Source of the DNA: a virus
Lineage: Duplodnaviria; Caudoviricetes
Direction: 5' to 3' (one strand)
DNA: 64,000 nt
IMG/VR virus record: IMGVR_UViG_3300028886_000002
Coordinates: 1 to 64,000 of that record
Position numbers and translations under genes: made by a program. Below, piece by piece: positions 31,701 through 60,473 of this stretch. Within the stretch, counting starts at the first letter, position 1, and each line of letters starts with the position of its first letter. The notes beneath the pieces were generated by a model. That model was not told the DNA's origin and made no database searches. It saw only the letters and a list, made by a program, of their open reading frames with translations.

Positions 31701-34700
31701 GAAGATGAAGAAGACGAAGGAGAAGACGACGATGATGGTGGTGAAGAAGATGATGGTAAAGGAGAACAAGATGTAGATTTAGTTCCCGTCAGTGAAATAA
31801 AGGTACCATTTAGGAATAATGTAGTAGTAGTATTAAAGTTAAAGAAAGATCAAATTGACTATGTACTAGAAAATGGATATCTTATTAAGTCTGATCCAGT
31901 TGTTGTAACTAATAAAACTACATTAAAAACAGCTGTATAGAATATTAGAAATGATTTGATTGCAGGAGTAGCTGTTATACCCGCTGGAACAGAATTAGCT
32001 ACAAAGATTCAGAACGGTGATAAGGATATAAGTATTCCTGCAGAATATATATATCCTAAGTTTACTAAAGACGTAGTAAAAAAATCAAAAGGTAAAGCTA
32101 AAACTCCTAGTAAGAAAAATAAGAATACTAAATTTGATGTAGGGGATATTATTACAATAAAGAAAGAAAAAGGTAAGAATGGTCGAAAAGGATCTTCTAT
32201 TTAGTATAAAATATCTGATATATCTTCTAAGAGAGTATTTAATAAAAAAACCAAACGTTGGACTAGCAAACAAGTATACAAATTACAGCAGGTAGGGAAA
32301 CCAGCTAATGTAAAAGAATGGACTACAGACTTTGTAGATAATAATTACAAGAAAGTAAGAAGCGCAGCTGCTTCTAAGACTACTAAAGAACAGGTATCTA
32401 CATTAGAGAAATTAATGGCTAGAGAAATTAAACCTGCAACTACGGGAGATACCACACCAGTATCAGCTACAGAGTTACAGAACATCCTTAATTATGCTGA
32501 TAATCAAGTAATGGGAGTTAAATTATATTCTGGTCTGTGCTTTAGAAGTGGTATAGGATTTAATGTTACTCCTAACACTGACACCTTTACTTTGACTTAG
32601 CTTGATCCACTAGGAAGAGATGAAGAAAATCCTTCCGACTTAAGTGGTCTTATAATACCTTTCTTAAATATAGTGGATAATAATGGAAATCCTTTGTAGT
32701 ATGACCATAAAACAATGTCTGCTGTAACATAGGGTAACGATTTAGTAGTAGTATAGAAAGGTACTAGTAATGTAATTGGTAAAGTAAATAATCCAACCTT
32801 GCCTGTTAAATTGTTAAGTGAACTTGAAGCAACTCAAGCAAAGCTTAGATCATTATTGATGTTTAATAATGGGAATCTAAGAGAATTACATAAAGATATA
32901 TATGGAGAAGTCTATAATCTATATGCTAACAATTCTGCATTCTTACAGACTACTAAGGATTTAACAAAAATACCTTTATTATAGAATTTGTATAGATTAT
33001 CCAAAAGCTCAAGTCCAGGTTAGTTTACTTTTAAATTAAAGGTATTTAATAAAGATAACTTTGAACCTGAAGTTGACAAAGTATTAAGAATGGGTAACTC
33101 TGCAGTTCCTAATTCTAAATTATTAGTATATTCTATAGAAGGATGTATGGAAATAACTATGGGCGTATTTCCAAATCCTAAAACTGTAGAAACTTATATA
33201 TCTAATTTAGAGAAGATATATAAGTCAATGAAATCTAGTAATAAGGATAAAGCACGCTTAAATAAAGCAATAAGTTAGCTAAAAAATACTTTAACCGTAG
33301 TTAATTCTATAGATTCCAGCTCCAAGAGTTTACAACAAACTACATACTGGGATTTAGGAGAATTCAATTTGGCAGAGCATCGTGTCACTAACACAAAGAG
33401 AAGCCCAATTTAGTTTGCTTTAGGAAATGGATAGACTTAGATGGATTTTGCTCAATTTAAGGAAGATCCAGATATTATTTGCTCTGATCCTTTCTTATTT
33501 ACAGATGCTTATAAAAATTCTGGCTTAGTTGATCCCTCAACTGCAGGTAAAGCTGTTGTATTCTATACTACAGACTTAAACCTTTACTACGGTTTTGAAA
33601 ATGGTAAATTAGCAGTTGCAAATAGTAAAAAGAATGATTCCTTTAAGAAGATAACTAAAGCTAATAGTAACGAATTATATTCCTTATGGGCTACTGTTAG
33701 AGAATAGGCCGTTGCTTCAGGTAATATGGATGATCTTAATGCTTTGGAAGATAAAATTACAATGGTTGTTTTATCTCCAAAGGGCGTATCCTTAGAAGAA
33801 TTCGTAACTCAGGCTATCAAATTAAAAGAAGCCATGAGAAATGGTGTAAAATATATTACTCCTGCGGGAAATATAAACACCTATACTAGAATTATAGAAT
33901 TCTTGATTAATACTAACATAGAAGTAAAGAAATTCTTAGCTAAAATAAATAAGGATAGTGGAAAATCTTCTTATTCTTACGGCACATTATTTAGTGTTAA
34001 TGGAACAAATGCAGCTATTAATTTTAACACTGTAGATGAAGTTAAGTAGTTCCATGATGATTTAACCTAGATGCTCTCTGGTATATTTACAACAATTGAT
34101 TCTAACATTAATCTCTCTGATTATGGTATTGGTAAATCTACCTCTACTAAGAAATTAGAGAGTGCTTTAGGAAAACTATTAGTTGAAGTTATTGGAGACT
34201 AGGACTTAATAAAAGAATTTATTGATAGTGGTAGAGTTGGGTATTCAGCTAAAGGTACTGGAAATACCATAAAAACAACTTTTAGTGGTTCACATTGGTA
34301 TGAAGTATTCTCTTCTATAGTTAGTTACTTTACAAATAATGTAAATGTTGACGACACTGAAATTGCTGAAAATAGAAAAGATTTCTTAAGCAAGTTAGAA
34401 GCTTTACGACAAGTGGACGCCATTGATAAAGAAAATCCATTAAAATTCGGAATCTTCTATAATCCAAGGTTTAAACCAAATCCTAATTTTAACCCTTCCA
34501 AAAAGGAAATGGCTTATCCAGCAACAGATCTCGAAGATCACTTTTATGTTTCAGTTGTACCTCAAACTCCTGACTTTGTATTACCATTAACAACACTAAG
34601 TAAAGTAAGTAGTACTTCAAGTTCGGACAATGTAGGCGGTACTGCTCCTTCAACTTCGGTAGCAAGAGCAATGGCTGCCGCTCCTGCTGCAGCTGCTTCT

Positions 34701-35639
34701 AATTCAGAAGCTGAAAAAGTATTAGTAATGCTTAATAGAGCTATTGAAAAATTTAAGTAGAAGTTAATTGATGAACTACATATACAAGAAAATATTGATC
34801 CTAATTTACTTACAATCCTGGAACAAACTATAAGCGATGTCGTAGATTCAAAAGCAGAACCTATTATACAGGATTTAAGAACAAATGGGGATAATTCTCA
34901 ATATGCAGTAAAAGAGAAAATGATGGAGGCTGCTAATGCATCAGTTAGAACTATACTTACTGATATTGTTACAGAAGTTAATAATAGGATATCTGATCTT
35001 AATATTTCTACTGTTCCTATAGTAACTTATAATGGAATGATAAGTACGCTTGAACAAGAATTACGTTCTAGAAAAAATTATAAAAAGACTGATTTCAATA
35101 GCCCATTAGCTGAAACATAGTTAGTTAAGGATGGTAAAGATTATTTCTTATATTATAAAGAAGATGGAATAGCTTATAGAGTTAAAATAACTATGTAGGA
35201 TGGCTATGTACGTGATATCAGAAGAAAAGTTATAAGTGCATCAGAATTTCCAGGGGCAGCTCCAGCCGTAGAGCCAGAACAAAAATCTGATTCTTTAGAA
35301 TTAATACCTAAAATAATAGAAAGCATTAATTCTGTTGAACCTCAAAGAGAGGGAGGAATACCTCAGTAGTTTGTAGATGCTTTTAATACGGCAAAACAGA
35401 GTCTAATTGAAGCTGTTACTGATTCTATTTCTTAGGATCCTGGAGTTGTAAATGCTGCTGTATCGAAGTGGCAACTTGCTATGAGCATAATAGAAAATTT
35501 AAAGAATATGTACTAGGTAACATCTAACTTAGATGCTGTTATAGCTGAACATATAAAAGAATTAAATTCGAAACAAACATCGGAAGACATTTGCGTAGAT
35601 GCGCAAAACTTAGTAATTTTGTTGAATAAAACAATTTAA
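25743..35639 (+). CDS. Giant virion protein (~3298 aa) with internal superfamily-1 helicase-like domain
   Basis: All + ORFs from 26013 to 34920 share the frame. Walker A GIPGAGKT (30378-30401), Walker B IIFIDES (~30696), ILTGDLQQ, KAQGSE and TTISRSK[Q]G. TAA at 35637-35639. Confidence 0.8.
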
Positions 35640-35652
35640 AATTAATATTCAA

Positions 35653-38600
35653 ATGAACGGACAATGTAGTTTAAATGATTCAAACATATATTCACTTTTA
35701 AATAAGTTATTAGTTCCTGGCAGAAATCTAGATAATACCTATAAAGAGATAGGTAGGACTCTAGTAGAGGGAGGGTATGACTTATCTGAGGATAACAGAG
35801 AACATTTGGCAGAAGCAATGCTAGCTTGGAGGAATGCTAATCTTCCAATAGCATTGTTTTCGCCTGGTTCAGAGAATCAAATATATCTGAGCGCATTAGC
35901 TGCTGATAGTAAAGAATTATAGTATGCTTTAACTTCTATTATTCATTGGGATGGTGATACTAAACCAGAAGATACTAAATAGATGGTTATAGTTGATTAG
36001 GACAACAGTGATAATGATACTGTTGATATTACCACTCGTATTAAGGAGAACCAATTGGATGATATTTACTAGCAAGCTGCAGAAGCTAAAACATTAATGT
36101 AGCAATCTTTTAAAAGAAATATTGTTAGTTCATTGCTAGTAAATTTTAAAATTGGTCAAATTCCAACAACTGCTGAACAAGTAAATAATAATATTGCTTC
36201 TTATAAAGAGGAATTAGCTAAAGCTATCGTTGATTATGCAAATACTTATGCAGAAAGAAATATTACTGCTCAGATGTATAATGAAGATGGTACCTTAAAT
36301 ATTAGTGGGTATAGAACAGTTGAAGAATTAGCAAAGCATCTTTTTGAAAATACTACAGATATTGAACTTATCGACGCTTTTAAAATGAGAAATGAATCTC
36401 CTAAATCTAGAGCATTTCTTGACGCTTTTAATGCTTGGATAATTCTAAATAACTTTGATATGTTATTGAAAGCAGAGTTAAAAGATTCTGTAAATATTAA
36501 GAAAAGTCTTTTAGATGCTCAAGTAGATAAAGATGTTATAAAATACTAGCTTGTAGATGAGTCTGAATTAGTAAAGACTTGGAGAAATTCAGAAGATGTA
36601 AATGCATTAAAAGAACTTGGTAATATAACAACATTACTTATCTCATCTACACCTATGTATGATTACAATAAAGGCAAGCCTTATTTGCAGCCTGGGAAAT
36701 ATGTAGATCCAAATTCATTTTTCTTTGCATTTGCTGATATATTAAGAATACCATCTATTAAGAGAATTTCTGAAAATAAACGTTATAATTCATTAGAAAT
36801 TATCCCTCAAATTATAGATGCTGTTTTATCTATTTCTTCTTTGGGCCCTAATACAAATCTAATACATAGTATAATGTATTCTGTACAATAGCATTTCTTT
36901 AGGACTTCTGGAAAGCAAGCTGACCAAGACTACTCTTTGGCAGAAATTATGCTAAAAGAACAAAATTCTGAAGGTTACTATGTAAATAAGAATTATTTAA
37001 ATTATGTTGCATCTGCTATAGATAAGACTGTACGAAACTTATATTTGACTTATAATTCAAATAGAGACACTGGTGTAATTGAAACTAGAGTTTCTACGGA
37101 TGTATCAGCATCTAATAGTGAATTTGACATTAGGAATTCTATCGAGAGTCCTAATAAGATGCTTCTTCCTTCTTAGAGAGAATAGTTAATAAATACATAT
37201 GTTCTTAACAATAAAGAATACTACGATGCTTTATCTGAAGAAGAGCAAGAGAAAATTGGGTATGATCCACAGTTAAGTTCATATCCAAGTTTGTGGTCTA
37301 TAACTACTGATATTACTGTGGGAGGAGCTCCTGCTAAATTAGTAATACGAGTATTTAATGACATTACTTCAGATGGTAGTTAGAATAATAAAGCAATCCA
37401 TTCTATAAATATAGTAGATGAAAACGAAAATGTATCTACTATATTTAATAGTAAAGATGGATTTAGCCCAGAAGTTCCAGAAGCAATATTACAAAATGTA
37501 GAATCTGTCATAATGGATATGGTAGATGATACATTAAAGCAGAACTTCAAGACCAATCCTGAATTCTTTAATGCTTATATGTAGAATCTTCCTAACAAGG
37601 AAACTGGACAATAGCAGTCACATTTAGAGGGATTATTATACTTAATTCCAATGGCTAACAGAGTATTAATTAAACATACTTTAGAAGCTAAGAATTTAGC
37701 AGAGAATACTTCATTGTTAGACAAAGTATATAGAATTGATCCTATTTATAAATTTTAGAATGGTAAGCAAAAGCCTTATTTATCCCTTTAGAAAAAACTA
37801 AAAGTATTAATGGATACAAAAGGTGATAAGACTGTTGTAAAATTCTTAGGAAATGCTAAAATGGTAATTACAGGAGAAATTGCAAAATCTACATCTAAAA
37901 ATATTGAAGGTAATACTGTTTCTAACAATGGTCTAACTAATCTTATGAGCACTGTTGCTTTAGTATTTGAAGATTCCAGGAAAAAACTATCTACTGAACA
38001 GGATGATAGTATGGAAGACCCATACTATCGTAATTCTTGTTTACGAAACTGTGTCTTTGTACTACAACCTGAATTTTTACATGGAGTAGTATAGAAGCAA
38101 GGTGCAAAAAGTAAAGACGGTTTATCTAGTAAGCTAGACAAGAAATTTAATGTGGCAGAGTCCTTAGAAAGTGCAATAAAATTTGATTTCTTGATTAATT
38201 ATGGGTTAGATCCAACTAATTCACAACAAGGTATAATCAGAATTCAGCCTACAGATTATTCTGATAAAACTACTGACTATCTTCTCGAATTAAATGGAAA
38301 TATTCCACTTTCAAATAATAAAAGTTTAGTAGGAATGTCCTGTATAGAAGTAGAAGAATTGCATAGAACTCAAATGGATAGTATGTATAGTACTATGCGT
38401 GATAACATAGGAAAAGACTATCATGACACATTATTTAATTTCGTATTAAGAAATGCCGAAATATTAGGATTAAACAGAGACTATTTAATACGTTTAGATC
38501 AGTAGGCTGATTATTCAAAATACTATGATTACTATACTCAAATAGTATTTAAAGCAATCAATAATAATATTGGTAACTTACAAATAGATGGTAAAACTTA

Positions 38601-41600
38601 TTCTAATCCAAAGCAATTATATAGAGACTTATCCAGAATAAATAATACCAAAGTAATTACTAATGTACATTTTGATGATACGGCTAAAGTCTTAACTACT
38701 AATAATATTATTGATTATTATTTCCGTGTATTCGGCAATAAAGATTTATATAATTATGTTCTTAAGAGAAACCAGTTACGTTTTATTAAAGATGTTGCCC
38801 AGTATGTTAACTTTAGATGGTCTACTCAAAAAGGTATTGATCCTATATTGGAAAATGCTGTAAAGAGGCTAATAAGTAATGGTACTATTGGTGATGAAGA
38901 AATGTTTATACATAATTGGGTAGATTATAGAACTGGTGACCTTATATTAGCCAAAATAAATACAGACGAAGAATCTATACCTTTAACTAAAACTGACTTA
39001 AAGAAATTAAAACTTTCTGATTTAATTTATGGTGATAATTTTGGATTTGAGATAAACCCAATTCTTAGAGCATTCTTTGCCATTGACACAATGGTATCGC
39101 AGCAATTTATTAGTTCTACTGTTGGAGGTAACTTTGTACATAAAAACAACTTTGGAAAAAATACTGATGCTAATCCGTTGTGGGAAAATGTAGGACGATT
39201 TGAAATAGGTAGTCCTGAATTTAATATTGCTTTAAATGAATACTTAGATACAGTGGAAGTAGAAGATGCAGGTAGATTACTTACTCAGTATAAACGTATG
39301 GTTATTTACCCTGCCACTATGCACCCATTGTATTAGATGGCATTGGAAGGGTCTCCTACATATTATAATATGGCAAGTATAGACGATGTTTAGGCCAATA
39401 CTTGGGATTATATTAGTGGAGACCATAGTAACGGTAAACAAAAAACTATAGATGCTCACGATGGTTCTGGTATGGTTGATCCTGGATTTGCTATTCTTGA
39501 AAATGGATCATTACAAGGTGCCCATGTAGGTATTGATAAAAAACCTATTGGACATAGTATGGATGATTCATATATGGTTGAGACAGAATTAAAGTATGCG
39601 TTGTTTGCAATTACTAATTGGAAAGTTAGAAATTCTAGTAATAGAGTCGGAGAACGCTATGGTATTAATTATGACCTTTTCCGTAGAAAAATGGGTAGTT
39701 CAGAATATGGGCAAGGATGGCCTAGTGATTTAGATATAGATATTACCACTAAATTTAATGGTGAAAAAATTAATCTAGATGACTTAGTTTCTACATATTT
39801 CTATGATCCAAAACTCAAGAGTTACTTCCAAATTGTAGGAATACAAAAGTTACCAAATGTTAAGAATGGTTACATATTTACATACTAGCATGTAGATGAA
39901 AATGCAAAGCCCATAGGAAAACCAATAGAAGCAGAGCAGCCTCTTATAATTGACAGTAATTACTCTTTATGGAAAGCTTTAGGAGGAGAATGGTCTTGTT
40001 CTCTCCAAGATGGTAGGTTAGTAGAAGATGAATCCTCTAACTATAATTGGGCTTATTTTGCAAACAATATAGGATTTATAAGAACAAAACAAAATCCTAT
40101 AGCTATGCATGAAATAGATTATACTGAAAATGATTTACTTGATGAAAATGATATTACTACTGATGAAAATGGTAAAAAATCTTTTCCAGTAGTTTTAACT
40201 CAAAAAGATATATATCAACCTCTTAAATATTCAGGAATACAATATGCAGTAAACGTATCAGGTATTAAGAATGGTCAAGTAAATACAAACCCAGTACGAT
40301 CTTATTATGATTAGACCCCTTTAAGAAGCTTTCGTATATTTACTAAGCATCTTGGGGTGCAAATGAATGCTGACCACCATGCAGATGATGCAGAACTTAC
40401 TGAGATGTCTCAGGTTATTTCTGCATTGGAAGCTAACGGTTGGGCACACGATCTAGTAAAATAGATTTATGAAGACCTGGGAAGTATAGTATTATAGACT
40501 CTTGAACAAGAAATTAAAGCTTTAAAAGTTTTCTTAAAAACAGGTGATAATACAGAAATATATAGAATTGTAGGTAAGGCCTTTATAAAATCTTTTGGTA
40601 AAGACGGAGGACAAGACACTCTTACTGCTAGTATGATGAATAATATCATCAAGGAATTAAATGGAGAAGACAATATAGAAAATATTGAATAGAAATTACC
40701 TTTTAGTGATACTTCTGTATTATCTTCAGTAGTTGGTAGTATTACTTCTAATATCAATAAAACAGCCATTAAAAGAAAGTACTCAGGTTTAGCCGCTGTT
40801 CTTGTACCTGCCTATGATATTATAAAAGTTTATAAGCAGAAACAAGAAGATGGATCAACTAAAGACGCTCTTAATGAGGATATTATTAAAAATGATACTG
40901 ACTTGTCTGCTCAAACAGAAGCAAGTGATATAATGTCAGCTAAAAACATAGAGTTAGGCCTATCTTATATAGTATATGAAAATGTGGCATTAGACCCTTA
41001 GCCATTAAAAAGAGCTATAATTGATGGCAAAGAATATTATGTAGGGCATAATTATGACGGAATGTTAGTTTTGTTTGATAAATATGGTAATCAACAAGAT
41101 ATTCCTATGCCTGATTTAATACAAGGGCAATATGTTACTGGATAGTTACCTGATTTAGTTGTTACATTGGATACAATTAGTGACTACAAGAAGTTTAAGC
41201 GTTCAGCATTATAGTTTAAAGAAGACTATGCAGTAGGTAGAAACCTCTAGCCATCTAAAACTAGCTTCTAGGTTAGAGAAGAAGAGGGTACTACTTATAG
41301 TATATTTGACACTGATGAAATTGAACAAAAAATAAAATTCAGAGAATTCTATGATGTATTTAAAAAGACTCCTGTAATAAATTACAAGAATTTCTTTAAT
41401 AATAATGATGCTTTATTTGATATAATCAACAGAAATCTAAATCCTAGAATAGTATCTATATACACTAAAATTAGAAATCTAACATCTAAAGATGTATTGA
41501 CTACTAATGATGATGTAATGATTTAGAAGTATATGGATATGTTGGAAGTCGAGTTTGCTAACCAAGTAGTAATGGCTTTCCAAAATTTGCATCAATAGCA

Positions 41601-44600
41601 CATAGTACATATGGGAGGAGAAACATTTAATGTTGTTCCTGAAACAATTAAAGTTGAACCTGCTGAATTGGTTGTATCTAAAATATATGCAACTAAGTTT
41701 GGAATAAAGAAAGGTGATAACTTAAACAATATTGATCTTTAGTATTTTATAAACTAGCAAAGAGAAAATTTTGTACCCAAAACTGAATTATATGATATAA
41801 TGCTCCGTAGGGATAATGGAAGACATACTTATGTTTTACTTAGTAAGCATAAAGACTAGTTATTAAATAAGCAATTTGTAAAGGTAAATCCCCCTACTCG
41901 TGTGGACTCTGTTACTGGTGATGTGATAAGATTAAATGAGTTAGAAGAGGACATGATGCCTTTCAATAACTGCGAGCTATATGTTAAGGATGGAATAGAA
42001 GTAATCGTAACAGACGATCCTGCTGATTTAGTAGATGATGCTTTTGAATACTCTTCATATGATATAAATCCATCTAGTAAATTTGGATTAGAAGACTTAA
42101 AAGTATTTGATACTATTCCTCTTAAGAGGATTTCATTAGAGCAAAGAGAAAATTATATTAATAACTTAGCTTAGAAAAAATGGTCTTCTTTCTAGCAATC
42201 ATTAGAATTTATAGCTGCTCGTATTCCTGCTCAAGCTTTACAATCCTTCATGCCTATGAAAGTAGTAGGATTTACTGATTCTGAGGAAAACAAAGCTTAT
42301 GTTTCTCATTTCTAGACTTATCTTTAGGGTTCTGACTATGATATTGATAAAGTATATCTAATGGGTAATGAGTTTACAGAGTCTGGAATTTATATTGGCT
42401 GGAGTCCTTACTTCAACTTAAATAGTTTACAGAAGTTAAAAATTTCCTAGGAAATTCCTATGCCTAATGGTATAGAATATTCATTGGTTTCTGCTTAGGG
42501 TACAGGTGAAAATACTGATATAACTGAAGACATAATTAATCTTAAGTTAACGGAACTTTCTTATGGGTAGGACAGTATTTAGTATTTAACTGCAATCAAA
42601 AACCTTCTTATTAAAGCTTAGCAGACTAAAAATTCAGAATTGGCTGTAAATTATACTTCTTTGGCAGATACTTTTATACAAAATGGAATTGCCCACGATC
42701 CTACAGCATCTTTATAGTTTGTATAGGATGAAGCTGACAGAATACTTGATATGATTAATAAACATACTTCTTATTTTAAATCAATTAAGAATAAGGATAT
42801 GCGTTTAAAGATGACCAAGAATTCTGTTACATCCAAGATGTATAAAACTGCTAATCTTCCAGAAAATACTTATGCTGCTTACAGCCCTATCGAGATGGGT
42901 GAAACTAGAGAAGCTGCAACTAAGTCTTAGATGGGTGAAGCCGAAAAAGACTATACTACTTTTAATCCAGTATCTAAGTTTATGATGCATTATCAAAATA
43001 TGATGGGTAAAGATGGTATTGGTATATCAGCAGTAGGAGAGAAAGTATTATTCTGTCTATAGTTCTATTTTAACGAAGCTGCAAGATTAAACTCAAATTT
43101 TGATAATCTTGATTCTGATGAATTTAAATTCTAGAGAAATGCATTTTTCCATAAGACATTGGATATAGTAGCAGCTGGTACAGATAGAATGCCTATAATT
43201 CGTAATCTTATTGCAAACGTTAATTTAAAAAATAATAATCATATATGGGCTCAAATTATTAATTCTAACGTAGCAGAATTAGAGAGTCTAATGCAGACAA
43301 GTTAGGATTCAGAAAGAATTAAATTCTTACAAGACATGATACTACTCCAATTAAACTATATGAAAGATAGTTCTCTTGTGAATAGTTCACTTCTTTCTGC
43401 AGCAACTGATAATGCTAAAGAGCTTATTCTTGCAAAAATCAATGCTAATCCTGATATGATGAAAGTCTATACATACGGTATAATATTAGGAATTGATTTT
43501 ACAGATATAGCAAATTTAATGATCTCTCCAACTGTAAATGCTGTTAATCAGTTGAGTGATATTAACATATTTGAGAAAGATAGCTTAACTTCTGCTATTA
43601 CAGCATCTTTAAATTCTCTTAAGAAAGGTATAAATCCTGGTGAGTATCTTAATACTACTGACATAGAGATAATTGAAGACTTACTTTTTAAAGTACCTAA
43701 TGGGGATGTTAGAAGACTAGATTTATAGGAACTTATACGTAAGTCAAAAACCTCTAGTGTAGAAGGGCATACCACGTTCAAGCAAGATTTAGATGGAGTA
43801 AATAAAGGTGAAGTAAGTTGGGAAAGATTTGCAGCTGATTGGACAGTTAAGATTAATAATATTATTGCATTAATAGATGGGTTAGCGGGTTCCACTCCTT
43901 CTCCAAGCATTCAATAGCTTTACAGGTATTTATTCAAGATGCAAGAATGGCTGGATATTGTAAAGGATATTGATCAAGAAACTTTGAATACATTTAAAGA
44001 TATGCTAGATTCAGCAGAAGAATTTGTTACCTTTGGTGCTATCTTAGGCATTAATCAAGGTATTAGAACTGATGTTGATGGTAAATTAGCATATTTAAAT
44101 AGAATAGAAAATGTGTTTAAAAATAGATTCGATAAAGGAGCTTCTGTAGATGTAAATGATATTTTAGCTTCTAAACCTTACTATGTAAGATTCTATGGTG
44201 GGGAACAAGAAGCTAGAAATTACATAGAAGCTACTGTTAAGAAGGCAGACTCTTTAGGAATATTCAACGACTTTAATGTACTACAATTCCTATTAGATGA
44301 ATAGTACAGAGAGGTTGCTATTGATGCTTACGACTTAGTAAAGGGTACTATTAATATACTAGATATAATATCAAGAGTACCCCATTTCCAGGCAATGATA
44401 GACTCTAGCGGTGTTGATTTTTATTTGTTCAGCAGTATTAGTTCTGTATTTAATTTGATGTATAATATTTCACATGAATTATTATAGAGAGGAGAATTAA
44501 GCTCATTATCTACTAGACAAAGAACTGACTTTACTAGAGACCTTCAGAACTTTATACAATCTCAAATTGCCTTAAAGTATTTTAAGGATAGAAATGTTAA

Positions 44601-45585
44601 AGTTCCAATCGGCGAAGGAAATCAGGTAATTAATAAAGACGGTGAACTAATAACTATTGAACAAGAAGAGGCTTTAGATTTAGGAACAGTAGAAGGGCAA
44701 GCAGCATTTAAACTTTGGATGGAACAAACTGTAGTTCCAAATTTAAAAATGGGAGTTGTTGAAGATGGTAATGATGAATATATCCAACGCTCATTGTTAA
44801 CTAATAAATTTATACAAGCCCTTACTTTGAATTCTACTACTAGAACAACTACTGGAGATGAAAAAGGTGTTATATCTCTACCTATTAATATGTCAGTATC
44901 AACAAGTGAGTATAATGAAAATATGTTCGTATCATACCTTACTGATTTTAATAAATTAAAAGGTGTAACATATAATGGTATTCCAGTACAAACTTTATTC
45001 TTCTGGTATAACTTGATTGTAAATAGAAATGTCCAAAGCCGAGATTCTTTAACCAAAATATTTAAATCTGCTATTAGAGATAATAGAGGGGATAATGACA
45101 TTAATGACTATTTTAAGTATGTTGGTGACATGGATAAAAGATAGTTGTTTTCTTCTGAAGACTTTAATATGCAAGACTTATTATTATCTTGTGCTCCAAA
45201 AGTTACTAGAGCGTGGTTAGTAAATGAGAAGTATGAATCTAACTAGTATCCTACATTTGTAAAAAGCTGGGATTCTGACACTGGTACATATAAAATATAT
45301 AAATTAGATCCTACTACTTTTGCAAAACGCGGAGGTGATGAAATGGACGATCTAGCATTAGCACAAATGGAAGATGCAGGAGAATTAGATTATGAAACTA
45401 ATGAGTTTACTCCTGTTGGATATAGAGAATATACTGTAAATGCAAATATGAGTAAAGCAGTAATGGCTAATTTATATCCATTCTTACCCTATAATTCCAG
45501 AGAGTTTAAAACAAAAGACGTAATGGATAAATTAAGTAGATTATTTAAACAAGGTAAAATTTTTATTTATAACGATTGTGGCTAA
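35653..45585 (+). CDS. Virion-packaged two-barrel DNA-dependent RNA polymerase, catalytic subunit (~3310 aa)
   Basis: In-frame AARIPAQALQSFMPMKVVGF...YL[Q]GSDYDIDK (DxDxD at 42334-42348), plus DAHDG, GKDGIGISA and SAATDNAK motifs typical of crAss vRNAP. Confidence 0.9.
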
Positions 45586-48472
45586 TAATTGTATTCCAAA
45601 AATAATAATGGGTGACTAGGAATTTGTTGGTTCCTAGTTACCCGCCCATTCGTCTCTTACACAAATATTGTAGAGTGTATTGGCTAATGGTAATAATGCT
45701 TCAGAGTTAAATTAGAGATTGTCTGATATTTCTAGTCTTGATTAGGTGTAGATAACTTCATTTGATCAAGTTGCTTAGATAATACCAGGTAATGCTACAT
45801 TTATGGATATATCTAAAAAGATACATTCTGAGGGGCGTATATATTCTCCAGTAAATAAATCTATAGAAGAAGCTATAAGTATTATCACTAAATATGGTAA
45901 TTATCCAAAAATATTATGGCTTAATGGCGATATAAAATTAAATGGAGCTTCTATTCCTAATGTTATTATTACTCCAAATGGAGAGGATATTATAGTTCTT
46001 AAATCGAATGATCCTTTTGAGATAAATATAGCATTATAGGAATACATTTATAAAACACTATTATCTACAAGAGCAAGAAGTTTCTTGAGTCTTATAGAGA
46101 CTGCTATGGGTAAAAAAATTACTCAAAAAAATAAAGACTAGATTGATTTAGTATTTAGAAGAAATCCTGCTATAGCTGCTATAGGAACTAAAGAAGAGTA
46201 CAGACAATATTTATTATCTATATTTCCAGAATCTGTAGAAACTTCAATCTATTGGCACGGCTCTAATTCTGATTTCTCGGAAGGATTTTAGAGTGCACAA
46301 AAAACTGAAGGTAGTGGTGCTCCTGAAGTACAGGATAGAAATGATATGTACTTTAATAAGTAGGCGTATGCTTCTATTCAATATGTAAATGGACAAAATA
46401 GAACTGCTCCAGCAGATGTTAATGGTTTTGCTCATTGGAATAAATTATATTGGGAACTTAAAGAGATCCTTTCTAATGGTTTATCTGGAGATTCTTGGAG
46501 AAATCAAGTAATTGATACAAGCACTATTAGAAAAGAAATTCCTAATAAAAGAGGTGAATTTGATCCAAAAAGAAAAAAAGGAAAGACTCTAGACTAGAGA
46601 AAAAGAGCTTATGGGTATGGTGAAGGTGATGAAGAAACAGTTGCTTTCTTTAGAGAAGTTTTTGGTATTGAAATAAATGACCCAAATAAAAAAATAACCT
46701 TTAATGAATGGGTTGCTAAAAACAAGAAAATCTTTAAGGATATGGAAGGAGAAGCTCCTGGTCTTTATCCTGTTATTCTTAATATCAAGAAACCTATTAG
46801 AGAAGAGGGCCAAGATACCTATTATGAGGGGCATCGCAGACTATTTACTAAAGCAGCTAAAAAAGGCAATGATGCTATTATAGGTACTCGTACTAAGAAT
46901 GAATTTGGGTCTGATGTAGTAGTAATGCTCAATCTTGAAGACAATCCAGAAGAAAGAGTACATTTTTTAGGAACTACAGCAGATTTAGAAGCGTTTGCAG
47001 CTTGGAAACAACAAAATCAACTTTCAACTGATAATATAATTGAGAAAATACTTCGAGACCCATTTATAAATGAATTTCTCGATTCTGAAGGTTCTGCTAT
47101 TACTGAAGGTTTTGATACCCTTAGAGATGAATTACAAAGTGTAGTACATTAGGCTATCAATGATGCAATTAGTACAGAACATTATTTTAGATTAGAGAAA
47201 GTAATTAGTGGAGGACAAACTGGAGTAGATACTGCAGGTGTTACTATAGCAAGAGAATTAGGATTTTCCACTGGAGGAACCGTGCCTGTAAATGGTTTAA
47301 GAGAAAGAGTAAATGGACAATCTAGTAATATATCTAAAGAGGATATGGTTAAGTTCGGATTTGAAGAAGTACAAGACATTACTGCTTCTAACCCTTACAC
47401 TGACAGAACAAGAGCTAATGTTCAAAACTCTGATGGTACTGTTTATATATTGGCTAGTAAGTATCTCGCTAGTGGAGAAGAATCCGCTGGTTATAAAGCT
47501 ACTTCAAGAGCTGCTATGGAACTCGGGAAACCTTTTGCAGTTGTCTATAGTGCATAGGACTTAAGAGAATTTGTTATAAATAATAACATTAGAGTATTGA
47601 ACATTGCAGGTTCTAGAGGCAGTTCCTATTCTCCTGGAGATGAAGAAAGAATAAATAGTATTATTAAAGATGGTCTTACTGCACAGCCTTGGATAACAAA
47701 AAATAGAGTTGAATCTTCTTTAGTTACTTCAAGATATCCAAGTGCAAACTACAACACTGATAATATGAGTGTTTCTGATGTACAAGACGCTCTCAATAAT
47801 CGTACTGCTAATATGGTTTCTTATTATGGAAAAAATAAAGCCAATCCATCTATTCCAGGCAATACTTTTGAAGCAATTCTAACTCATTAGAGAACCGCGA
47901 CTACTAGGTATGATAATTTATACTTTTGGACAAAGAAAGTAAAAGTCGGAGACATTGTAGCTTTTAAGAAGAGTAAAGAGGCAAATTCTAGTGTAGTTTT
48001 TGTAAGAATAAAAAGTATTAATCCTATAAATGAGGATGCTAATCCTTCAGAATGGTCAAGCAAAGAAGGTTGGTCATAGGCTTATTTTAAGGATACAGTC
48101 ATACCAAAAATTAGAGAAGCAAAAAAAGAGGGCAGGTAGCCAGTGTAGATAGAATATGAATATGTAGGAGCTATTATTAATGATGACTTAAAGAATGTTT
48201 AGGGAACAAGTGAAACTACCTTTACAATATAGACTCCTATAGGACCTCTTGAATTTAGAAATTAGAAGGATTTAGCAAATAAATTAATAACTATTAGAAA
48301 GCAAATAGTTGGAACACAGAATTAGGAAGCCGAAGAAAAACTATAGAATGATATGAATATGTATGCTCAAGCTATAGTTACAGGCATTCTTCCTAGCGGA
48401 AGGGATATAAATAATGATCCCGTCGAGATGTAGAATTTTATAAATACTGTTATCAATGACGGAAACTGCTAA
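45578..48472 (+). CDS. Polyvalent virion protein (~964 aa): ADP-ribosyltransferase-like + SLOG/YpsA (MoCo-carrier-like) + ASCH-like domains
   Basis: GTG start overlaps the RNAP stop (alternative ATG at 45608). ORFs 45803, 46742, 47282 and 47597 are in frame. Motifs: YWHGS..MYF..A..Y..YPVILNIKKP..GNDAII; KVISGGQTGVD..RTRANVQNSDGT..LNIAGSR; TFEAILTH[Q]RTATTR..KVGDIVAF..EGW. TAA at 48470-48472. Confidence 0.75.
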
Positions 48473-48477
48473 TAAAT

Positions 48478-50190
48478 ATGGCTCAGTGTATTAATAAATT
48501 AGAAATAGAATATCAACAATTATTAGAAATGACAGGACTAATGCCAGCAGAATTAGATTTATATATAGGAGAATATTATCAAAAGAATGGAAAATGCCCT
48601 ACCGTAGATAGATTCCTCCGTACAACTAATACTACAGCGGCTTTTGTCAAGGAATATAATTTAAAGAAATGTGGCAAAGGATGGATAGCATAGGACGACA
48701 GACCTATTGATATTCCATTGATTAACTCTAAATACCGAGATATTGAAGTGTCCGCAATAACTTCTAATATTAGCCCTACTGTATATATGGCCAAAGTAAG
48801 AGCTATTTAGAATAGAGATTTGGACACACCTACAACTTATTTATTACCAACCACCATTGAACAAGTAAAAGAGCTAGAACCCGAGATGCAGCTCGAAGAT
48901 GGTTCCTACCTTTATAGGCAAGGTAACACAATTTATAGAACAAATTGTAAAGTTACTAGTCCTCTTTTACTTACTAATTATCCAAACTTTGCCACTTATT
49001 CTGAAGCTCTCACTACTCCAATAGAAAAAACAAGTTACGATAAAAGCGTAATTGATGTTATTAGATTAAATAGAGGTAAATTGTTTAACGATTAGTATAT
49101 TAAAGTAAAAACTTTGTTAAATTTGCCAGGGGAAATTAAGTTCTACAAAGATTTTAATTACCCAGTATTTGAATTTAATAATATTATTGGAGATCGTGAT
49201 TATTATATAAACTCTTTAGGAGTTCTATTAATAAATCCAGATTCTGTAAACACAGACTTAGATTTAGAAAGAATTATCTTACAAGCAGAGGGATTTAATG
49301 ACTCTTAGATTGAAACTATTTTATCTGGATTGTCTAACTATGAAACTTATGAAGCTATTAGACAATCTAACGACAGCTATTTATTACATAAAGTTAATAA
49401 TGGAACAGATATTAATAGTGTTGCTAATACTATTTCTCCAAAAACCCAAAATAATGGAGAAAATCATCTAGAAAAAATTCTTGATAGATTAGAGGAATTA
49501 TATGGAATAGGGTTTATAAGAACTAGTACAGCTGAATTACAATCTAATAATTTTACTGCTATTATCCCTGACGCTACTAGAGTAAATGCTTTTATATACT
49601 AGGGACAGATTTACATAAACATGGATAATGCTACATCTGATTCCCCTATTCACGAGTTATCTCATATATTATTAGGGGCTTTGAGGGATACTAACCCTGA
49701 TATATATTATACTTTGGTATAGTCAGTAGAGCAACTCCCAGATTATCAACAGAGACTTCAATAGTTTCCTAATCGAACTAGATAGGATGCTAATGAAGAA
49801 ATCTTTGTAGATTTATTTGCAAAGCATTATACAGAGGGCTTAAATCTTGAGGCTGATCAGAGTATTATAAATGATGCAGAATATGAAATTAAGCATAATA
49901 TAGATTCAGGTATATTCCCAAATAAAAGCACTACTACAATAAATTTAGCAGAGCTTATGAATAAATCCTTAAATGAAATAATGGATGTATTTGGGACTGC
50001 CATTAATAGAGATACTTTAATAAAATCTTATAATAGTGATACAGCATATTGTCGTACAATATCTAATTTAAAAGAGGAACTTTTAAAAAGAAAAGAATTG
50101 GAAGAATATTGCTCAGATGGTGGGCATCATTCTTAGAGAATAATTAATGCTTATCGCAGAGGTTAGGATTCTAATCCTGCTAAATTTTAA
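48478..50190 (+). CDS. Virion protein with zincin metallopeptidase domain (570 aa)
   Basis: ORFs 48478, 48820, 49114 and 49330 are in frame. NAFIY[Q]GQIYIN..DSPIHELSH (49651-49665) and downstream ANEE. TAA at 50188-50190. Confidence 0.75.
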
Positions 50191-50199
50191 AAAGGTCGA

Positions 50200-50415
50200 A
50201 TGATGGATAATGCTAAAGATTTAGATACATTTATAGAAAATGTTAAGAAGTCTTTTCGTGAAACAGAAAGAGGAACTTTTGATGTCAACGGTGTCTTCTA
50301 TAAAAACCCTGACGTTACATATGCTTAGAATGTTAGAGGAGCAAAAGATATAAGAGATCTCTGGAATGAATATAGATCTTATGTAACAGATAAATATCCA
50401 AACGCAAATATATAA
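50200..50415 (+). CDS. Small ORF (71 aa, one TAG) in the same frame as the upstream peptidase; possibly its detached C-terminus
   Basis: The frame stays open past TAA 50188 (KGRMMDNAKDLDTFIENVKK...KYPNANI) to TAA at 50413-50415. Confidence 0.45.
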
Positions 50416-50421
50416 TAAATT

Positions 50422-53400
50422 ATGAGTACATGTGTATATAAACTTGGAGGAAGAGTATTTGGTTCAGAGTTGGATTTAGATAATTTCTTATATAATTATC
50501 TCGGATCTTTTGATGCAGACAGCATACCTGATCTTGTATTTAGTACACGATCTCCTAAAGCTAATGTGCTTTCTAAAAAATTGGATGATAAAGCTGAAGC
50601 TTTAAAAGCCAATGTAGTTAAAGCTGCAAAACTAAGGGCTAGAAGAGATGAATTTGTTAGTGAAGCAGAAAGTGCATTAATAGCAAATTACTATGGTGCT
50701 AATATGGTATTATCTACTGTAGAAATCGCCCCAAATACAAGAATAACACCAGAGTTCATTCGCTCTAAATTAAAAGCTAACTTGTTTAATTAGTGGACTG
50801 GTTAGCCTTCAGCTAAATCAACAGGTATTAGTAAAAACATTGCTGATATTTTAGCCGCAGCAGGCTATACAGAGAATGGCAGGCAATTAAAAGCTGGAGA
50901 TATTATTACAGAATAGACATATGCTGGCAATTCCACCAATATAGAAGATATTTTCCCTAAATGCAATGATATATTTGAAAATTATGTATGGCCTTATTGG
51001 GCAGGTTTAGGAAAAGTAGGTACTGCTATGCACCGTGTAGCAGAAATGTTTTGGTTGGGAGAAAGCACTATTTCCATATTAAATGATTCTGTTGTTATAA
51101 CTGGTGATGACAGTTTTACTGGCGATTTATCTAGTGTTTCTCCAGTACTTTCTAATGATACTATACATGAATTTCTTACATATCTAAATAGTTTAAAAAC
51201 TACTTTGCAAGCTCGACATGGAAAAAATTGTAAATTTAGACCTGAGTATCCAGTAGTTGCTAAAAGCTCTCTTCCAGTAAAAGGCAATCATAAGGCTCAT
51301 ATTATAGGTATCATTGACTTAGTAGTAGAAGACGAATAGGGAATACCTCATATTTATGACTATAAAACGTCCGATAAAGATATGGATGAATGGGGTGCAA
51401 TTAAAAGAAGATCTTATATGGCTCAGTTAGGTTTATATAGACGTATTCTTGAATCTTATGGTATAAATATAGAAGGTTCTACTCTAGGAATTTTACCTAT
51501 AAATTTAGCAAATTACACCATAACAAATGAGGGGTCACCTAGAGTAAATTCAATAGAATGTCCTAAAGATGTAAGAGGTCTTCCTTACATTGAAGATGTT
51601 TCTAGAGAACCAGCCTTATCACCTTTAGGAGAATTAACTGCAAAAATTAATAAGTTAGTATATGCTGAAAATGAACTTGAAGCTTTACCAACTAACTTTA
51701 TTAGAGATATTGAAACACATTTCAAAGAACTCTTCCCAAGTTATACCTTTTAGAAAGACTATGATGATGCTGTAAAAGAAGGTATAGAAGCTGAGATAAA
51801 AGAAAACTTGAATAATGGTAAGTACATGTTCCCAAAAATTCCTGGTGAAAAAGAACGTATGGAATATGATAAAGAGGAAATATCTTAGCATATGGAAGAA
51901 TTTTATAAAAAGTATGTTACTTAGAATGATATAGCTCAAAAGCGTAACATATTTTATATAAAACAAGCTATTAGAGAGTAGGATCCCGCTAGACTTCCAG
52001 CAGTATCTTCTGTTAACTATGGAGACAAAGGCGAATGGTTTATTCCAATGTTTTCTAGATATTGTAACGGCTCGTGGGAACCTGTAAACAATGACGCTCT
52101 TGAGAGTTTAAACATATTAGCTTTAAGAAATAAAATCTCTGGACAAGTTAACATCTTTGTTCTAAGCGGATATGACTTAAGCCGTAAAGTAAAAATGAAA
52201 GAGGGTAATACAGTCCTAGGGTAGCATGTTAATGATATTACACCACAACATGAAGGCGTTATTCCATTAGAAGCTGATTTAGGAAACATTGAATTAATGA
52301 AAGCAATGGTAGCTATTAATTTAGCATCTAGATCAGTTCTTCGTAAAGGGGATAAACTAGGCGAAGTTATGGCAATAAATATTTGGAATCAGTAGGGTAG
52401 AACTACCTCTAATAAGCAATTAATGGATAATTTCAATGCTCTATGTGATTATTCACAAACAACTATGCCTAATAATTTTGCCAATGGTAAAATAGAAGTA
52501 GCGTCTGCAACTCAAAAAGTTGCTACTACTATGCTTGAATTAGGTTCTTTGGAAAAAGTGGGAGTTTTAAACCGTATATACTCTAAATATGAAAAAAGCT
52601 TAGTGTCTTTGGACATTGAATATGATACATTAAATAGACTTCGTAAGGAATTAGAGGATGCATATCCAGATTTAGCAAAAGGAGAAGTAGATATTAATAC
52701 ATCCCAAGGGGCTATGTATTCTACTATTATGACTGCTATTTCTGAAATGAATAATGCTTATTATACACAAGAATTAAGAGAAAGTTCCTTTATATCTCTT
52801 AATGTCAATACTCCTGAAATGATGGAATCTTCTAATTTAAGAAGATTAAGAGCTTTAACTAACAATGCATTCTAGAGATTACGTGATAGAATGAATAATG
52901 AAGCTGCCGAGTGGAGAATCCATTATGACAAATTAATAAAAGCCAAAGGTTACAGTAGAGGAGAAAAGTGGATCACTGATAATGATTCACGTCTTTATGA
53001 GAATATGATTATTCATAATAAAGAATAGGGTATTCTTAAATTTAAAAATCCTTGGGATCAGACTACAGACTTGACTAAAGAAGAAAGAGAATTCTTAAAA
53101 TGGTATCTTGATAAACAAGACAAACTAAGGTTTGAAGAGGATAGCACAGAAGAAAGTCGTCAATTAAGAAGGGCAGACTCTAATAGTCAATACTTTGATG
53201 TTCCTTTAATGGAATCTAAGGGACAAGAAAAAATCTTAAATGGCAGAACTAAAGGTTTAGTGGCATGGTTTAAGCGTACAATGCAATGGTGGAGACACCC
53301 AATTCAAAATGCTAAACGATTAGAAGCGAAGGTTTTAACAAATGAGAAAGCCGACGAAGCAAAGAAGACTGCACAAGCTTTTAGAATTATGGATGTTTTT

Positions 53401-55656: not shown

Positions 55657-56730
55657 TTAAAATCCAATTTTCTTTTCAGTTTTAACCCCATTATCTTCCT
55701 GGTAATTAAAGACATCACAAAGAGGCATCTCTTTAGGTGTCTCATTAATATTGAATTTTTCAAATAGATGTGTAACTTTATCTTTAGTTAGTTTACTAAA
55801 TTCATATTTTAATTTTAGTCTTCCTTTTCTTAATAGTGCAGAATCTACATTTGTTAGACTATCATTAAAAGTACATATGAATTTAAGGTTTAAAGAATCT
55901 CCTAGCATTCCATCTGAAATATTCAATATAGGAGTAATTAGGGTATTGTAATTACTACCTCTGTCTTTTAATACCATTTCACAATCTTCTAATATAAATA
56001 CAGAATCTTTACACTTAAATAAAAAGTCCATAAATGCAGTAGAATTTATCTGAGAAAACATAGAACTATCCAACCAATAAAACTTGATATCAGGATTATC
56101 TGTTATAAGTTTTCTTATAAGGAAGGATTTACCAGTTCCAGGTTCTCCATGAAGTAGTATAAGAGCACTACTTTTTGCTTGTATAATATCTTCTATTTTA
56201 TCATAAGGAAGATCATCATTATAGTTACTCTCTAAATCTACTTCATCTTGTCTGATTGGCATTAAATTAACATTAAATCTACCATTATTATCTACAGATA
56301 CAAATTTAAGATTGGCTTTATCACCAAGTTCATCAACTATACAGTCAATTATTTTTTGGCTTTTCTTTTCATTAACATTAAATATAGTACCCCTAAATAA
56401 TATAAATTCATTAGTTATTACGAATTTATAAGATTTCCATACATGCACGTAACATTCAAAATTCTTTATAATTTTTTCAGTAGTTTCATCAATATTAATT
56501 TTACCTCTTGGGTGATATTCTCCCTCTTCATCCCAATTTTCATCACTAATCTTCTCTTCTACTGTCAATTCATCAAAGAAATACATTACATGTGGTACTT
56601 TGCCATAAATCTTTACAAATAGAGCATAACAAAAAGCATCATCGTTAGTATTTTCTATTGTTGTTGCATCTTTGGAAGCTAATTCATAAATAGCATTTAG
56701 AGTTATTTGTTTTAGTTCTTCTTTCGTCAT
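55657..56730 (-). CDS. AAA+ ATPase
   Basis: LLHGEPGTGKS, FILEDCE, ILNISDGMLGD, DSALLRKGR. Confidence 0.9.
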   Translation of the reverse strand: MTKEELKQITLNAIYELASKDATTIENTNDDAFCYALFVKIYGKVPHVMYFFDELTVEEKISDENWDEEGEYHPRGKINIDETTEKIIKNFECYVHVWKSYKFVITNEFILFRGTIFNVNEKKSQKIIDCIVDELGDKANLKFVSVDNNGRFNVNLMPIRQDEVDLESNYNDDLPYDKIEDIIQAKSSALILLHGEPGTGKSFLIRKLITDNPDIKFYWLDSSMFSQINSTAFMDFLFKCKDSVFILEDCEMVLKDRGSNYNTLITPILNISDGMLGDSLNLKFICTFNDSLTNVDSALLRKGRLKLKYEFSKLTKDKVTHLFEKFNINETPKEMPLCDVFNYQEDNGVKTEKKIGF

Positions 56731-57437
56731 ATTTCAAAATCAAGAGGTGGATAAACTTCATCGTAACTTTCGTCAAGTATTGAAACTGTAGCAAATTTAG
56801 TACTAGTTTCAGGATATTCCTGAATAGAATGGTCAGAAGAGTGGATGTGTCCAGAGATTGCTATCTTTGGCTTTTTTTCTATAATAGCATTTGTAAGCAC
56901 TTTATTACCAGCGCGTTCCCCAGAATAATATCCTTGAGTAATAACTCCCATATTTCCAATATCTGGAGCATCATGAGTCATACATACATCACAGCATTTT
57001 GGTAATGTCTTATATTTCTCCTCTAAGAAAGAATCTACAGACATAAAAGCCCAATCACCAAATTGATGACACCAAGGAGAACCCCAAAACATATAACTCT
57101 TACCATCTTTATTGTAAAAATCTACAGTATCATTTAGGAATTCTATTTTATTACTAGTCGGCACTCTAATGACAGAATGATAATATGGCTGATTATAATA
57201 AAGGCTTTCACCTATAAAATCGTGATTACCCCAAACAGCATACACTTTATCACATGGTAATTTATTTATCCAAGGAACAAAGAATTTCTTTAGCCATTTC
57301 TCACTTTTAGGAATATTACGTTGAATATTTAATGGTACTATATCACCACAAATAAATAATACATCAAAACGATCAGTTATCTGCGGGAGTACACCATGAA
57401 GATCACTAATAGCTTTACACTTTAATTTACTCTCCAT
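56727..57437 (-). CDS. Calcineurin-like metallophosphoesterase
   Basis: ISDLHG, CGDI, WGNHD, MTHDAP, SGHIH. Confidence 0.9.
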   Translation of the reverse strand: MESKLKCKAISDLHGVLPQITDRFDVLFICGDIVPLNIQRNIPKSEKWLKKFFVPWINKLPCDKVYAVWGNHDFIGESLYYNQPYYHSVIRVPTSNKIEFLNDTVDFYNKDGKSYMFWGSPWCHQFGDWAFMSVDSFLEEKYKTLPKCCDVCMTHDAPDIGNMGVITQGYYSGERAGNKVLTNAIIEKKPKIAISGHIHSSDHSIQEYPETSTKFATVSILDESYDEVYPPLDFEI

Positions 57438-57621
57438 TATTATTATCCTTTATATATTCATCAACATAAGTAATTAATGCTTTATTTATAGTTTCTTCAC
57501 TAAATGTCTGTGCTCTCATTTGTCCAACAAAGAGATGTATCAAATCATATGCACAGATTCCTTCGTCTTTAGTTTCTGTTGTAGTAACTAGTCCGTCTAG
57601 ATTTAATTTTAATTCAGTCAT
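57427..57621 (-). CDS. Hypothetical protein (64 aa)
   Basis: ATG to TAA ORF overlapping the next gene start. Confidence 0.6.
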   Translation of the reverse strand: MTELKLNLDGLVTTTETKDEGICAYDLIHLFVGQMRAQTFSEETINKALITYVDEYIKDNNNGE

Positions 57622-57640
57622 AATTTTAAATGCGTTTTAA

Positions 57641-57734
57641 AGCTATTTAGAGAGCCTCTCAGAGGCTTTTAGTTTCTGTCTAAGTAAGTAAGTGTTACAG
57701 AAATAAAAGCCCGCAGAAAGGCTCTATGATAGCT
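57641..57734. repeat. Long imperfect intergenic inverted repeat (~40-nt arms)
   Basis: Left arm AGCTATTTAGAGAGCCTCTCAGAGGCTTTTAGTTTCTGT versus reverse complement of right arm AGCTATCATAGAGCCTTTCTGCGGGCTTTTATTTCTGT. Confidence 0.75.
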
Positions 57735-58252: not shown

Positions 58253-58434
58253 ACTCCAGTCTTAATAGAAAGACCTTTGCTTTGTATTAATTTGGTAGTA
58301 TCAAATAATAATAAATTTCTAATATAAGCTTTAACTTCTCTAGGAGAATTTCTAAGAAAATCTTCTATTTCTCTATTTTTTTCTTCTTTCTTTTTAATTA
58401 TATTATTCTTTCTTATTTTCTTCTACCATTTCAT
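58243..58434 (-). CDS. Possible small basic protein (63 aa) needing TAG readthrough at codon 4
   Basis: MKW[TAG]KKIRKNNIIKKKEEKNREIEDFLRNSPREVKAYIRN...GVWE then TAA; fills the gap between thyX and the 172-aa gene. Confidence 0.35.
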
Positions 58435-59786: not shown

Positions 59787-59820
59787 TTAATATGATTTAA
59801 ATGTTAAACAATGGATTTAA

Positions 59821-60465: not shown

Positions 60466-60473
60466 TTTTTCAT

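Follow-up and report, generated by a model that had tools for sequence, protein, structure and literature searches.

A block of five large cysteine-poor genes

We analysed a window of 64,000 nucleotides (nt), positions 1 to 64,000 of the IMG/VR virus record IMGVR_UViG_3300028886_000002 (Caudoviricetes), whose source genome is a complete record of 160,728 bp with terminal repeats present. Five consecutive plus-strand genes of the window, here named P1 to P5 (25743–55182), encode proteins that are poor in cysteine (Cys). CrAss-like phages are the most abundant viruses of the human gut, and the comparisons below indicate that P1–P5 are probably the virion cargo block of such a phage, with a 160-kb genome and late genes that read TAG as Gln; the products would be packed in the head and injected. 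An original prediction, made from the letters of the window, had proposed that the five proteins are linked in gene order through Cys residues at their facing ends. The facing Cys are real and occur far beyond chance. The block is laid out as follows, with the successive proteins referred to as wagons.

25743–35639, plus strand: P1, first wagon, 3298 amino acids (aa), with an SF1 helicase-type P-loop domain; open reading frame (ORF) under TAG = Gln
35653–45585, plus strand: P2, predicted virion RNA polymerase, 3310 aa; ORF under TAG = Gln
45578–48472, plus strand: P3, lineage-specific wagon with a cpYpsA/SLOG domain, 964 aa; GTG start
48478–50190, plus strand: P4, zincin-type wagon, 570 aa, with HExxH at residues 392–396
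50200–50415, plus strand: in-frame ORF of 71 aa between P4 and P5, in the same frame as P4
50422–55182, plus strand: P5, last wagon, 1586 aa, with a PD-(D/E)XK domain

The start of the P3 gene overlaps the end of the P2 gene by 8 nt. Translated with table 11, the region from 25 to 55 kb yields short ORFs, and with TAG read as Gln it becomes a row of long plus-strand genes. Each of these long genes holds 10–54 in-frame TAG codons, and none occur in the minus-strand genes from 55.6 kb on. Over the whole window, the plus-strand late genes (385–55182) contain 1–54 in-frame TAG each, and the minus-strand early and replication genes (55657–64000) contain zero. No tRNA gene was found within the 64-kb window, and any suppressor tRNA must therefore sit elsewhere in the 160-kb genome.

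Domain searches bore out the helicase, RNA polymerase, SLOG and PD-(D/E)XK nuclease labels of the original prediction, and its protease label by way of an HExxH zincin motif. P1 matches the Pfam families AAA_30 and Viral_helicase1 at residues 1540–1689. P2 is a giant protein with a predicted two-barrel polymerase catalytic motif of the DFDxD type: its DYDID at residue 2228 falls within the BLAST alignment to the DFDVD region of crAss001 gp50, and phi14:2 g066 has DFDID. Residues 542–692 of P3 form a cpYpsA/SLOG domain (Pfam) that is 38% identical to IAS virus gp055 (E 2e-32). When P3 was compared with Pfam in three parts at E values up to 1, nothing was found beyond this domain, and the label "ART" had no match. 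The part of P3 at residues ~180–485 (46115–47035), which has no Pfam match, has homologues 45–54% identical to it, both as small proteins and embedded in giants of 2,100–3,400 aa, and the SLOG domain and a third domain (residues ~740–865) recur within giants of up to 5,600 aa.

P4 gave no Pfam match. In its family alignment (A2, 12 sequences) H392, E393, H396 and C545 are invariant, and the conserved motif marks P4 as an HExxH zincin with putative membership of the zincin metalloprotease family. An AlphaFold2 model from 12 sequences reached a mean pLDDT (predicted local distance difference test) of 42; the zincin core alone was moderately confident, and both Cys lie in low-confidence segments. 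An hhalign comparison of the P4 family with the gp49/g065 family aligned the HExxH region to gp49 residues 166–253 at a probability of just 6.5%, too low to be significant as evidence that P4 and P5 arose by a split of a gp49-like ancestor. P5 carries a PD-(D/E)XK nuclease domain at residues 199–347, and over its C-terminal ~500 residues it shows homology to the gp49/g065 family (hhalign probability 96%, E 4.8e-9, ~420 columns), which makes it, by homology, a gp49/g065-type protein downstream of the polymerase.

Terminal cysteines in the window and in related phages

All terminal Cys quoted in the original prediction are present. P1 has no N-terminal Cys, as had been stated; its coupling Cys is residue 3284 (codon 35592–35594), 14 residues before the stop. 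P2 begins MNGQC, with Cys5 at codon 35665–35667, and has Cys3309 (codon 45577–45579) one residue from its end. P3, with the N-terminus (V/M)ANNC, contains exactly two Cys in 964 aa, Cys5 (45590–45592) and the final residue Cys964 (48467–48469), and P3-like database proteins also end in Cys. P4 begins MAQC (Cys4, codon 48487–48489), and its coupling residue Cys545 (codon 50110–50112) lies 25 residues before the window stop. P5 begins MSTC (Cys4, codon 50431–50433); this Cys is invariant in alignment A3 and in database homologues, and the last Cys of P5 is 108 residues from the C-terminal end, in agreement with the claim that its final ~100 aa are free of Cys. The window follows one rule throughout: Cys within about the first five residues of the downstream N-termini, Cys at or near the upstream C-termini and no Cys at the outer ends.

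The N-termini are well anchored. In-frame stops 3–27 nt upstream fix the starts of P2, P4 and P5 (27 nt for P2). The GTG start of P3 at 45578, which the original prediction had named as a possible error, stands: a 91%-identical relative has ATA in place of the sole ATG close by (codon 11), and in an independent homologue, which aligns colinearly from residue 5 on, Met is the first residue and Cys the fifth. The C-terminus of P4 is less simple. The gene is cut by a TAA at 50188–50190; the 91%-identical relative from IMG/VR reads TTA (Leu) at this position and encodes a continuous protein of 645 aa abutting P5; the 71-aa ORF at 50200–50415 corresponds to the C-terminal part of that protein. A nonsense mutation, a polymorphism or an error of assembly could each account for the TAA. 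The "EEYC" Cys claimed near the end of P4 was thus correct as to the residue, for Cys545 is invariant and closes the protein in 10 of 10 alignment A2 rows outside the window's own lineage, and the Cys of P4 database homologues number exactly two, one at residue 3 and one at the very end. Judged by the relative, however, it lies ~100 aa from the native end of P4 itself.

We tabulated terminal Cys at 28 junctions of 14 genomes, which cover four Crassvirales families (Steigviridae: crAss001, phi14:2, DAC15 and IAS; Intestiviridae: crAss002 and cr11_1; Suoliviridae: cr1_1 and cr118_1; Crevaviridae: cr127_1), the window's clade and two outgroups, Leptolyngbya phage Lbo-JY46 and the Lightbulbvirus Cellulophaga phage phi17:2. 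Both facing Cys are present at 27 of the 28 junctions, so that terminal Cys are kept in homologues, and by sequence the rule extends to a cyanophage and a Lightbulbvirus. The junction Cys is always residue 3–5 at the N-terminus and lies 0–5 residues from the C-terminal end in 25/28 cases. These positions account for 55 of the 142 Cys found in 91,997 aa of chain protein. In phi14:2 the cargo has four Cys in 5,398 residues, every one at a facing end, and crAss001 gp47 and gp49 have one Cys each, again at a facing end.

Chance, composition, a gene-calling artefact or a nucleotide signal at the junctions could be invoked for such a pattern, since two starts (P3 GTG and crAss002 gp33) are uncertain and many of the genomes are related. 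The background does not favour this: among 209 other ORFs of the same loci (Cys frequency 1.32%), Cys occurs in residues 2–6 in 3.3% and in the last 15 residues in 12.9%, and the upstream stops mentioned above anchor P2, P4 and P5 at their starts. In crAss001, moreover, the C-terminus of gp47 and the N-terminus of gp50 carry the pair despite opposite coding strands, and the first DAC15 wagon is likewise opposite, which places the signal at the protein level and rules out a nucleotide signal at the junction. An exhaustive search with P3 provided an independent sample of 150 representatives, mutually <50% identical, 50 of which have at least 1,300 aa. In these 50 giants, which share P3 domains, Cys is found in the last 15 residues in 54% and in residues 2–6 in 36%, and 45 of 289 Cys fall in 20 terminal positions (~2 expected). 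In 11 of the giants there is a single Cys, which is terminal in eight (binomial P ~3e-15), and eight further giants, up to 4,676 aa long, are Cys-free. Ejection proteins of N4 and T7 lack such pairs. Taken together, these data leave chance or artefact a negligible probability.

The outer ends of the chains bear on the identity of the bonding partner. No first N-terminus (0/14) and no last C-terminus (0/14) carries Cys, and the numbers of N- and C-terminal Cys match in 13 of the 14 genomes. The terminal Cys might instead bond elsewhere, in like-with-like dimers (N–N or C–C) or with the portal, the inside of the capsid or the ends of the DNA, and like-with-like bonds would be sterically possible, as each particle probably contains every cargo protein in several copies. 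This would leave unexplained the Cys-free outer ends, the equal counts and the Cys found on both new ends where a gene is split (see below), and we consider it very improbable.

A shared metal site, which the original prediction had offered beside disulfides, did not gain support. The junction thiols could bind one Zn, Fe or Cu ion together with other ligands, or merely strengthen a non-covalent docking, with no disulfide formed; such a bridge could arise in the reducing cytoplasm during assembly, and Suoliviridae tails have a His directly before the Cys. There is one Cys per terminus, though, and a second His or Cys lies within 4 residues at 3/28 junctions. No conserved ligand set is visible, and two ligands on flexible ends would make a weak site, so that a metal site is improbable. 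A zinc-hook-type site, with three or four conserved Cys/His ligands from two partners, was considered separately and rejected.

Two side observations concern the annotation of surveyed genomes. In crAss002 gp33 (locus L006, 5270–5368) an in-frame Met-Ser-Cys follows 32 codons after the annotated start, downstream of a terminator-like hairpin, and the IAS gp055/gp056 junction (locus L008, 9380–9460) holds runs of N; both are probable annotation problems.

Gene splits, fusions and a candidate reducible chain

Distant relatives of the window's clade were available in two human-gut phage records, MT835470 (standard code) and MT835492 (TAG = Gln), at 20–30% identity to the window. Both keep the facing-Cys rule at every junction, more strictly than the window does. 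In MT835470, the P1 homologue has a single Cys in 2967 aa, 4 residues from the end; the polymerase begins Met-Ala-Cys and has Cys as its C-terminal residue; the zincin protein has just two Cys, residue 3 and the final residue; and the P5 homologue has a lone Cys at residue 3. MT835492 is paired at 4/4 junctions, and 17 IMG/VR contigs and 17 database proteins of the P-families are consistent with the rule.

The state of the genes themselves provides a further comparison. The P1 homologue of MT835492 is divided into two proteins, and a Cys pair stands at the split (the only Cys of a 1540-aa piece lies 4 residues from its C-terminus); in the window and in MT835470, where the protein is fused, there is no Cys near the matching position. 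Conversely, five giants of 4,100–4,900 aa (crAss002 gp33 and those of cr11_1, cr127_1, cr1_1 and cr118_1) fuse a gp47-like protein to the polymerase, or the polymerase to a gp49-like protein. In none of the five does the fusion region show a Cys pair; the pair occurs solely at the real junction that is left. The MT835470 polymerase lies in two ORFs, and neither has a Cys where they break; between them, the two halves of a group I intron match flank a LAGLIDADG endonuclease, and in contigs without the intron the polymerase gene is continuous, so this break is no protein junction. By these sequence comparisons the facing-Cys pair tracks gene state: splits have it, and fusions and intron pseudo-junctions do not.

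Group I introns with a LAGLIDADG homing endonuclease were seen in the virion RNA polymerase gene at locus L002 (MT835470, 14346–15407) and at L014, L016, L020, L022, L024 and L025. The intron is present in some contigs and missing from near-identical ones, and in L025 the break is at a different site.

Added proteins follow the same rule. No P3 homologue was found in MT835470 or MT835492, and P3 is, on this comparison, an added, lineage-specific wagon with Cys at both ends. The homologous SLOG protein of IAS virus, gp055, occupies another chain position and also has Cys at both ends.

The reading that we favour, with a probability of about 0.6, is that cognate facing ends dock on each other and are locked by disulfides in the virion, giving a linear cargo chain that is freed by reduction in the host. 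Each wagon would dock with its C-terminal region on the N-terminal region of its cognate successor; as all thiols are chemically alike, specificity would have to come from this docking. Once the particle meets an oxidising setting, the two junction thiols would form an inter-protein disulfide in place of the peptide bond found in relatives with fused genes. All five would end up in a single unbranched, linear thread of ~9,700 residues that begins with the helicase-domain protein and continues with the RNA polymerase, the SLOG protein, the zincin protein and the nuclease-domain protein. Such a thread could be packed at a fixed 1:1 stoichiometry and pulled in a defined order along the narrow passage of portal and tail, with the P1 N-terminus leading, and the reducing cytoplasm would then split it into free enzymes.

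The same paired ends could serve a simpler purpose. The tie might be an assembly staple, ensuring equal co-packaging or holding a multi-protein polymerase together, with the exit of the proteins independent of it. The fused forms indicate that the proteins can work as one polypeptide, a gene split leaves new ends adjacent, where stapling would be natural, and the crAss001 structural paper (PMC10172136) gives six copies of each of three polymerase-associated proteins as possible cargo. A staple, however, would allow the Cys to be anywhere on the interface, whereas the observed positions at the extreme termini are those that a thread needs. Unrelated added enzymes such as the SLOG wagon have couplers too, and a disulfide staple would be lost in the cytoplasm, where the polymerase works. 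We prefer a thread over a surface staple because the Cys sit at the very ends, on stubs of few residues, because Cys is avoided elsewhere and because a peptide bond can substitute for the link; the staple appears unlikely.

Modelling of terminal pairs, which the original prediction had proposed as a check, was carried out on the homologous P4-to-P5 junction of standard-code homologues. The score was 0.55 (median of three runs), against 0.00 for the best of 3 controls; the runs shared at least 52% of contacts, and the pLDDT of the partner was at least 71. The mark used to call docking was passed by 58/80 solved complexes and 2/110 mismatched pairs (our own alignments were used, and the counts hold roughly); passes at scores of 0.60 or below comprised 7/80 solved complexes and both passing mismatches. 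The model lends the docking weak support.

Several points weigh against the disulfide chain. The docking model is a weak pass obtained on homologues instead of the window proteins, with no contacts reported, and the whole case rests on sequence patterns. The anaerobic gut habitat and assembly in a reducing cytoplasm make the time and place of oxidation hard to set. The window is itself the loosest case, with the P1 Cys 14 residues from the end and the P4 Cys 25 residues from it (100 in the relative), and with 5–8 internal Cys in each of P1, P2, P4 and P5, in contrast to proteins of phi14:2 or crAss001 that have just one or two Cys. The IAS gp055|gp056 junction, where the sequence holds N's, has no N-terminal Cys, and the crAss002 gp33 start was moved by 32 codons to fit the rule. 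Finally, the surveyed genomes are related and the junction counts are not independent events; the weight accordingly rests on independent splits, fusions, inserted wagons and outgroups. What stands of the C-to-N disulfides that had been predicted in gene order is the order of pairing, attested by the paired junctions, the Cys-free outer ends and the covariation with splits and fusions. Disulfide chemistry, packaging, ejection as a single thread and reductive release are roles that we infer, as is docking beyond the modelled junction.

A thioredoxin, which the original prediction had brought into this scheme, is indeed encoded on the minus strand (61662–61907; domain match E 1.8e-15). The ORF lies directly beside a family A DNA polymerase gene (62387–63799) and near ThyX (58403–59278), a replication and nucleotide context that lends no support to a role in the chain. 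Host thioredoxin is the processivity factor of the family A polymerase of T7, which the neighbouring thioredoxin and polymerase genes of the window recall.

Two other identities for the N-terminal Cys were rejected. Split inteins and protein trans-splicing do not fit, as Pfam detected no Hint or intein domain in P1–P5 and the Cys is residue 3–5, not residue 1. Bacterial lipoproteins have a signal peptide of ~15–25 residues and a lipobox, whereas only 2–4 residues precede the Cys here.

A broader version of the disulfide chain, to which we give somewhat less than even odds, is that the Cys ends are modular couplers in crAss-like phages and at least two outside groups, such that any enzyme with Cys ends and a docking surface could join an ordered disulfide train. 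In the window, a core train of three proteins would then have been extended in evolution by further wagons, namely a SLOG/nucleotide-signal enzyme and a zincin.

Upstream of the chain, two proteins of 1539 aa and ~605 aa (19302–25740) are Cys-free, as are their homologues in the two distant relatives (1554/610 aa and 1474/637 aa), and are likely to be ejected cargo as well. An "MQKYC" start at 23890 was considered as a fifth N-terminal Cys and discarded: the ATG at 23923 directly follows the upstream stop, and the homologues are Cys-free and start alike. At the start of P1 (25743–25780), Asn-Asp-Trp occurs within the first 10 residues and is kept in all three clades; it might mark the head of the chain for packaging or for docking at the portal.

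How crAss-like phages pack and deliver more than 1 megadalton of enzymes ahead of their DNA is the question that a chain would address. If true, a covalent, redox-cleavable chain would account for a fixed cargo stoichiometry, ordered passage through the channel and the near-absence of Cys in the giants, as well as for the same genes being fused in some lineages and split in others. It would also be a natural, extensible protein-delivery device and would provide an annotation cue for ejected effectors of uncultured phages, namely giant Cys-poor proteins with Cys at each facing end. The idea is directly testable on phages already in culture. We found no description of a facing-Cys link between cargo proteins in the literature searched, whose coverage leaves out most subscription journals, and the structural papers on these proteins (crAss001, PMC10172136; phi14:2 preprint) do not mention their cysteines. 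New from the window is the five-wagon candidate chain of ~9,700 residues, the longest in the set of 14 genomes, with two lineage-specific wagons (P3 and P4).

Comparison with known cargo and ejection systems

The closest counterparts of the block are gp47/gp50/gp49 of crAss001 and g067/g066/g065 of phi14:2, which represent the same block and obey the same terminal-Cys rule. The window differs in having five wagons versus three, with the P4 zincin as a separate protein and the SLOG wagon P3 inserted after the polymerase. It also differs in the PD-(D/E)XK domain of P5, the helicase domain of P1, the TAG-recoded genes and the longer tails past the P1 and P4 coupling Cys. The crAss001 and phi14:2 proteins have been detected in virions by mass spectrometry, from which we infer that the window proteins are likewise carried in the virion and ejected.

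The fused forms of the block (crAss002 gp33, cr11_1, cr127_1, cr1_1 and cr118_1) have the same domains in the same order, with a peptide bond as the link; fusions of this kind are noted in the phi14:2 preprint. Read from their sequences, they show that continuity of the chain is tolerated or wanted.

Inter-subunit disulfides have been seen experimentally in the tail and portal vertex of crAss001 virions (PMC10172136). These also join separate virion proteins, but they brace a folded, fixed structure and do not tie a mobile cargo end to end. According to the same paper, the cargo must partly unfold for passage through the tail, and the order of exit is unexplained.

The ejection proteins of podoviruses (T7 gp14/gp15/gp16; the N4 virion RNA polymerase gp50 and its partners) are similarly large and internal, unfold through the tail and act in the host, and they are nearly Cys-free. 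N4 gp50 (3,500 aa), T7 gp15 and T7 gp16 contain zero Cys and have no facing terminal pairs; to our knowledge, T7 and N4 ejection proteins are not covalently linked. Cys depletion thus looks general for ejected proteins, and the terminal pairs look particular to the cargo described here. T7 gp14 (locus L036, 1729–2319) has a single Cys, at residue 2, and a partner C-terminal Cys was not seen in gp13.

A functional parallel is provided by AB toxins such as diphtheria toxin, in which one disulfide joins two chains during unfolded membrane crossing and cytosolic reduction frees the enzyme. This is an analogy only: the proteins are unrelated, the toxin chains arise from one cleaved precursor, and neither a multi-protein series nor a virion is involved.

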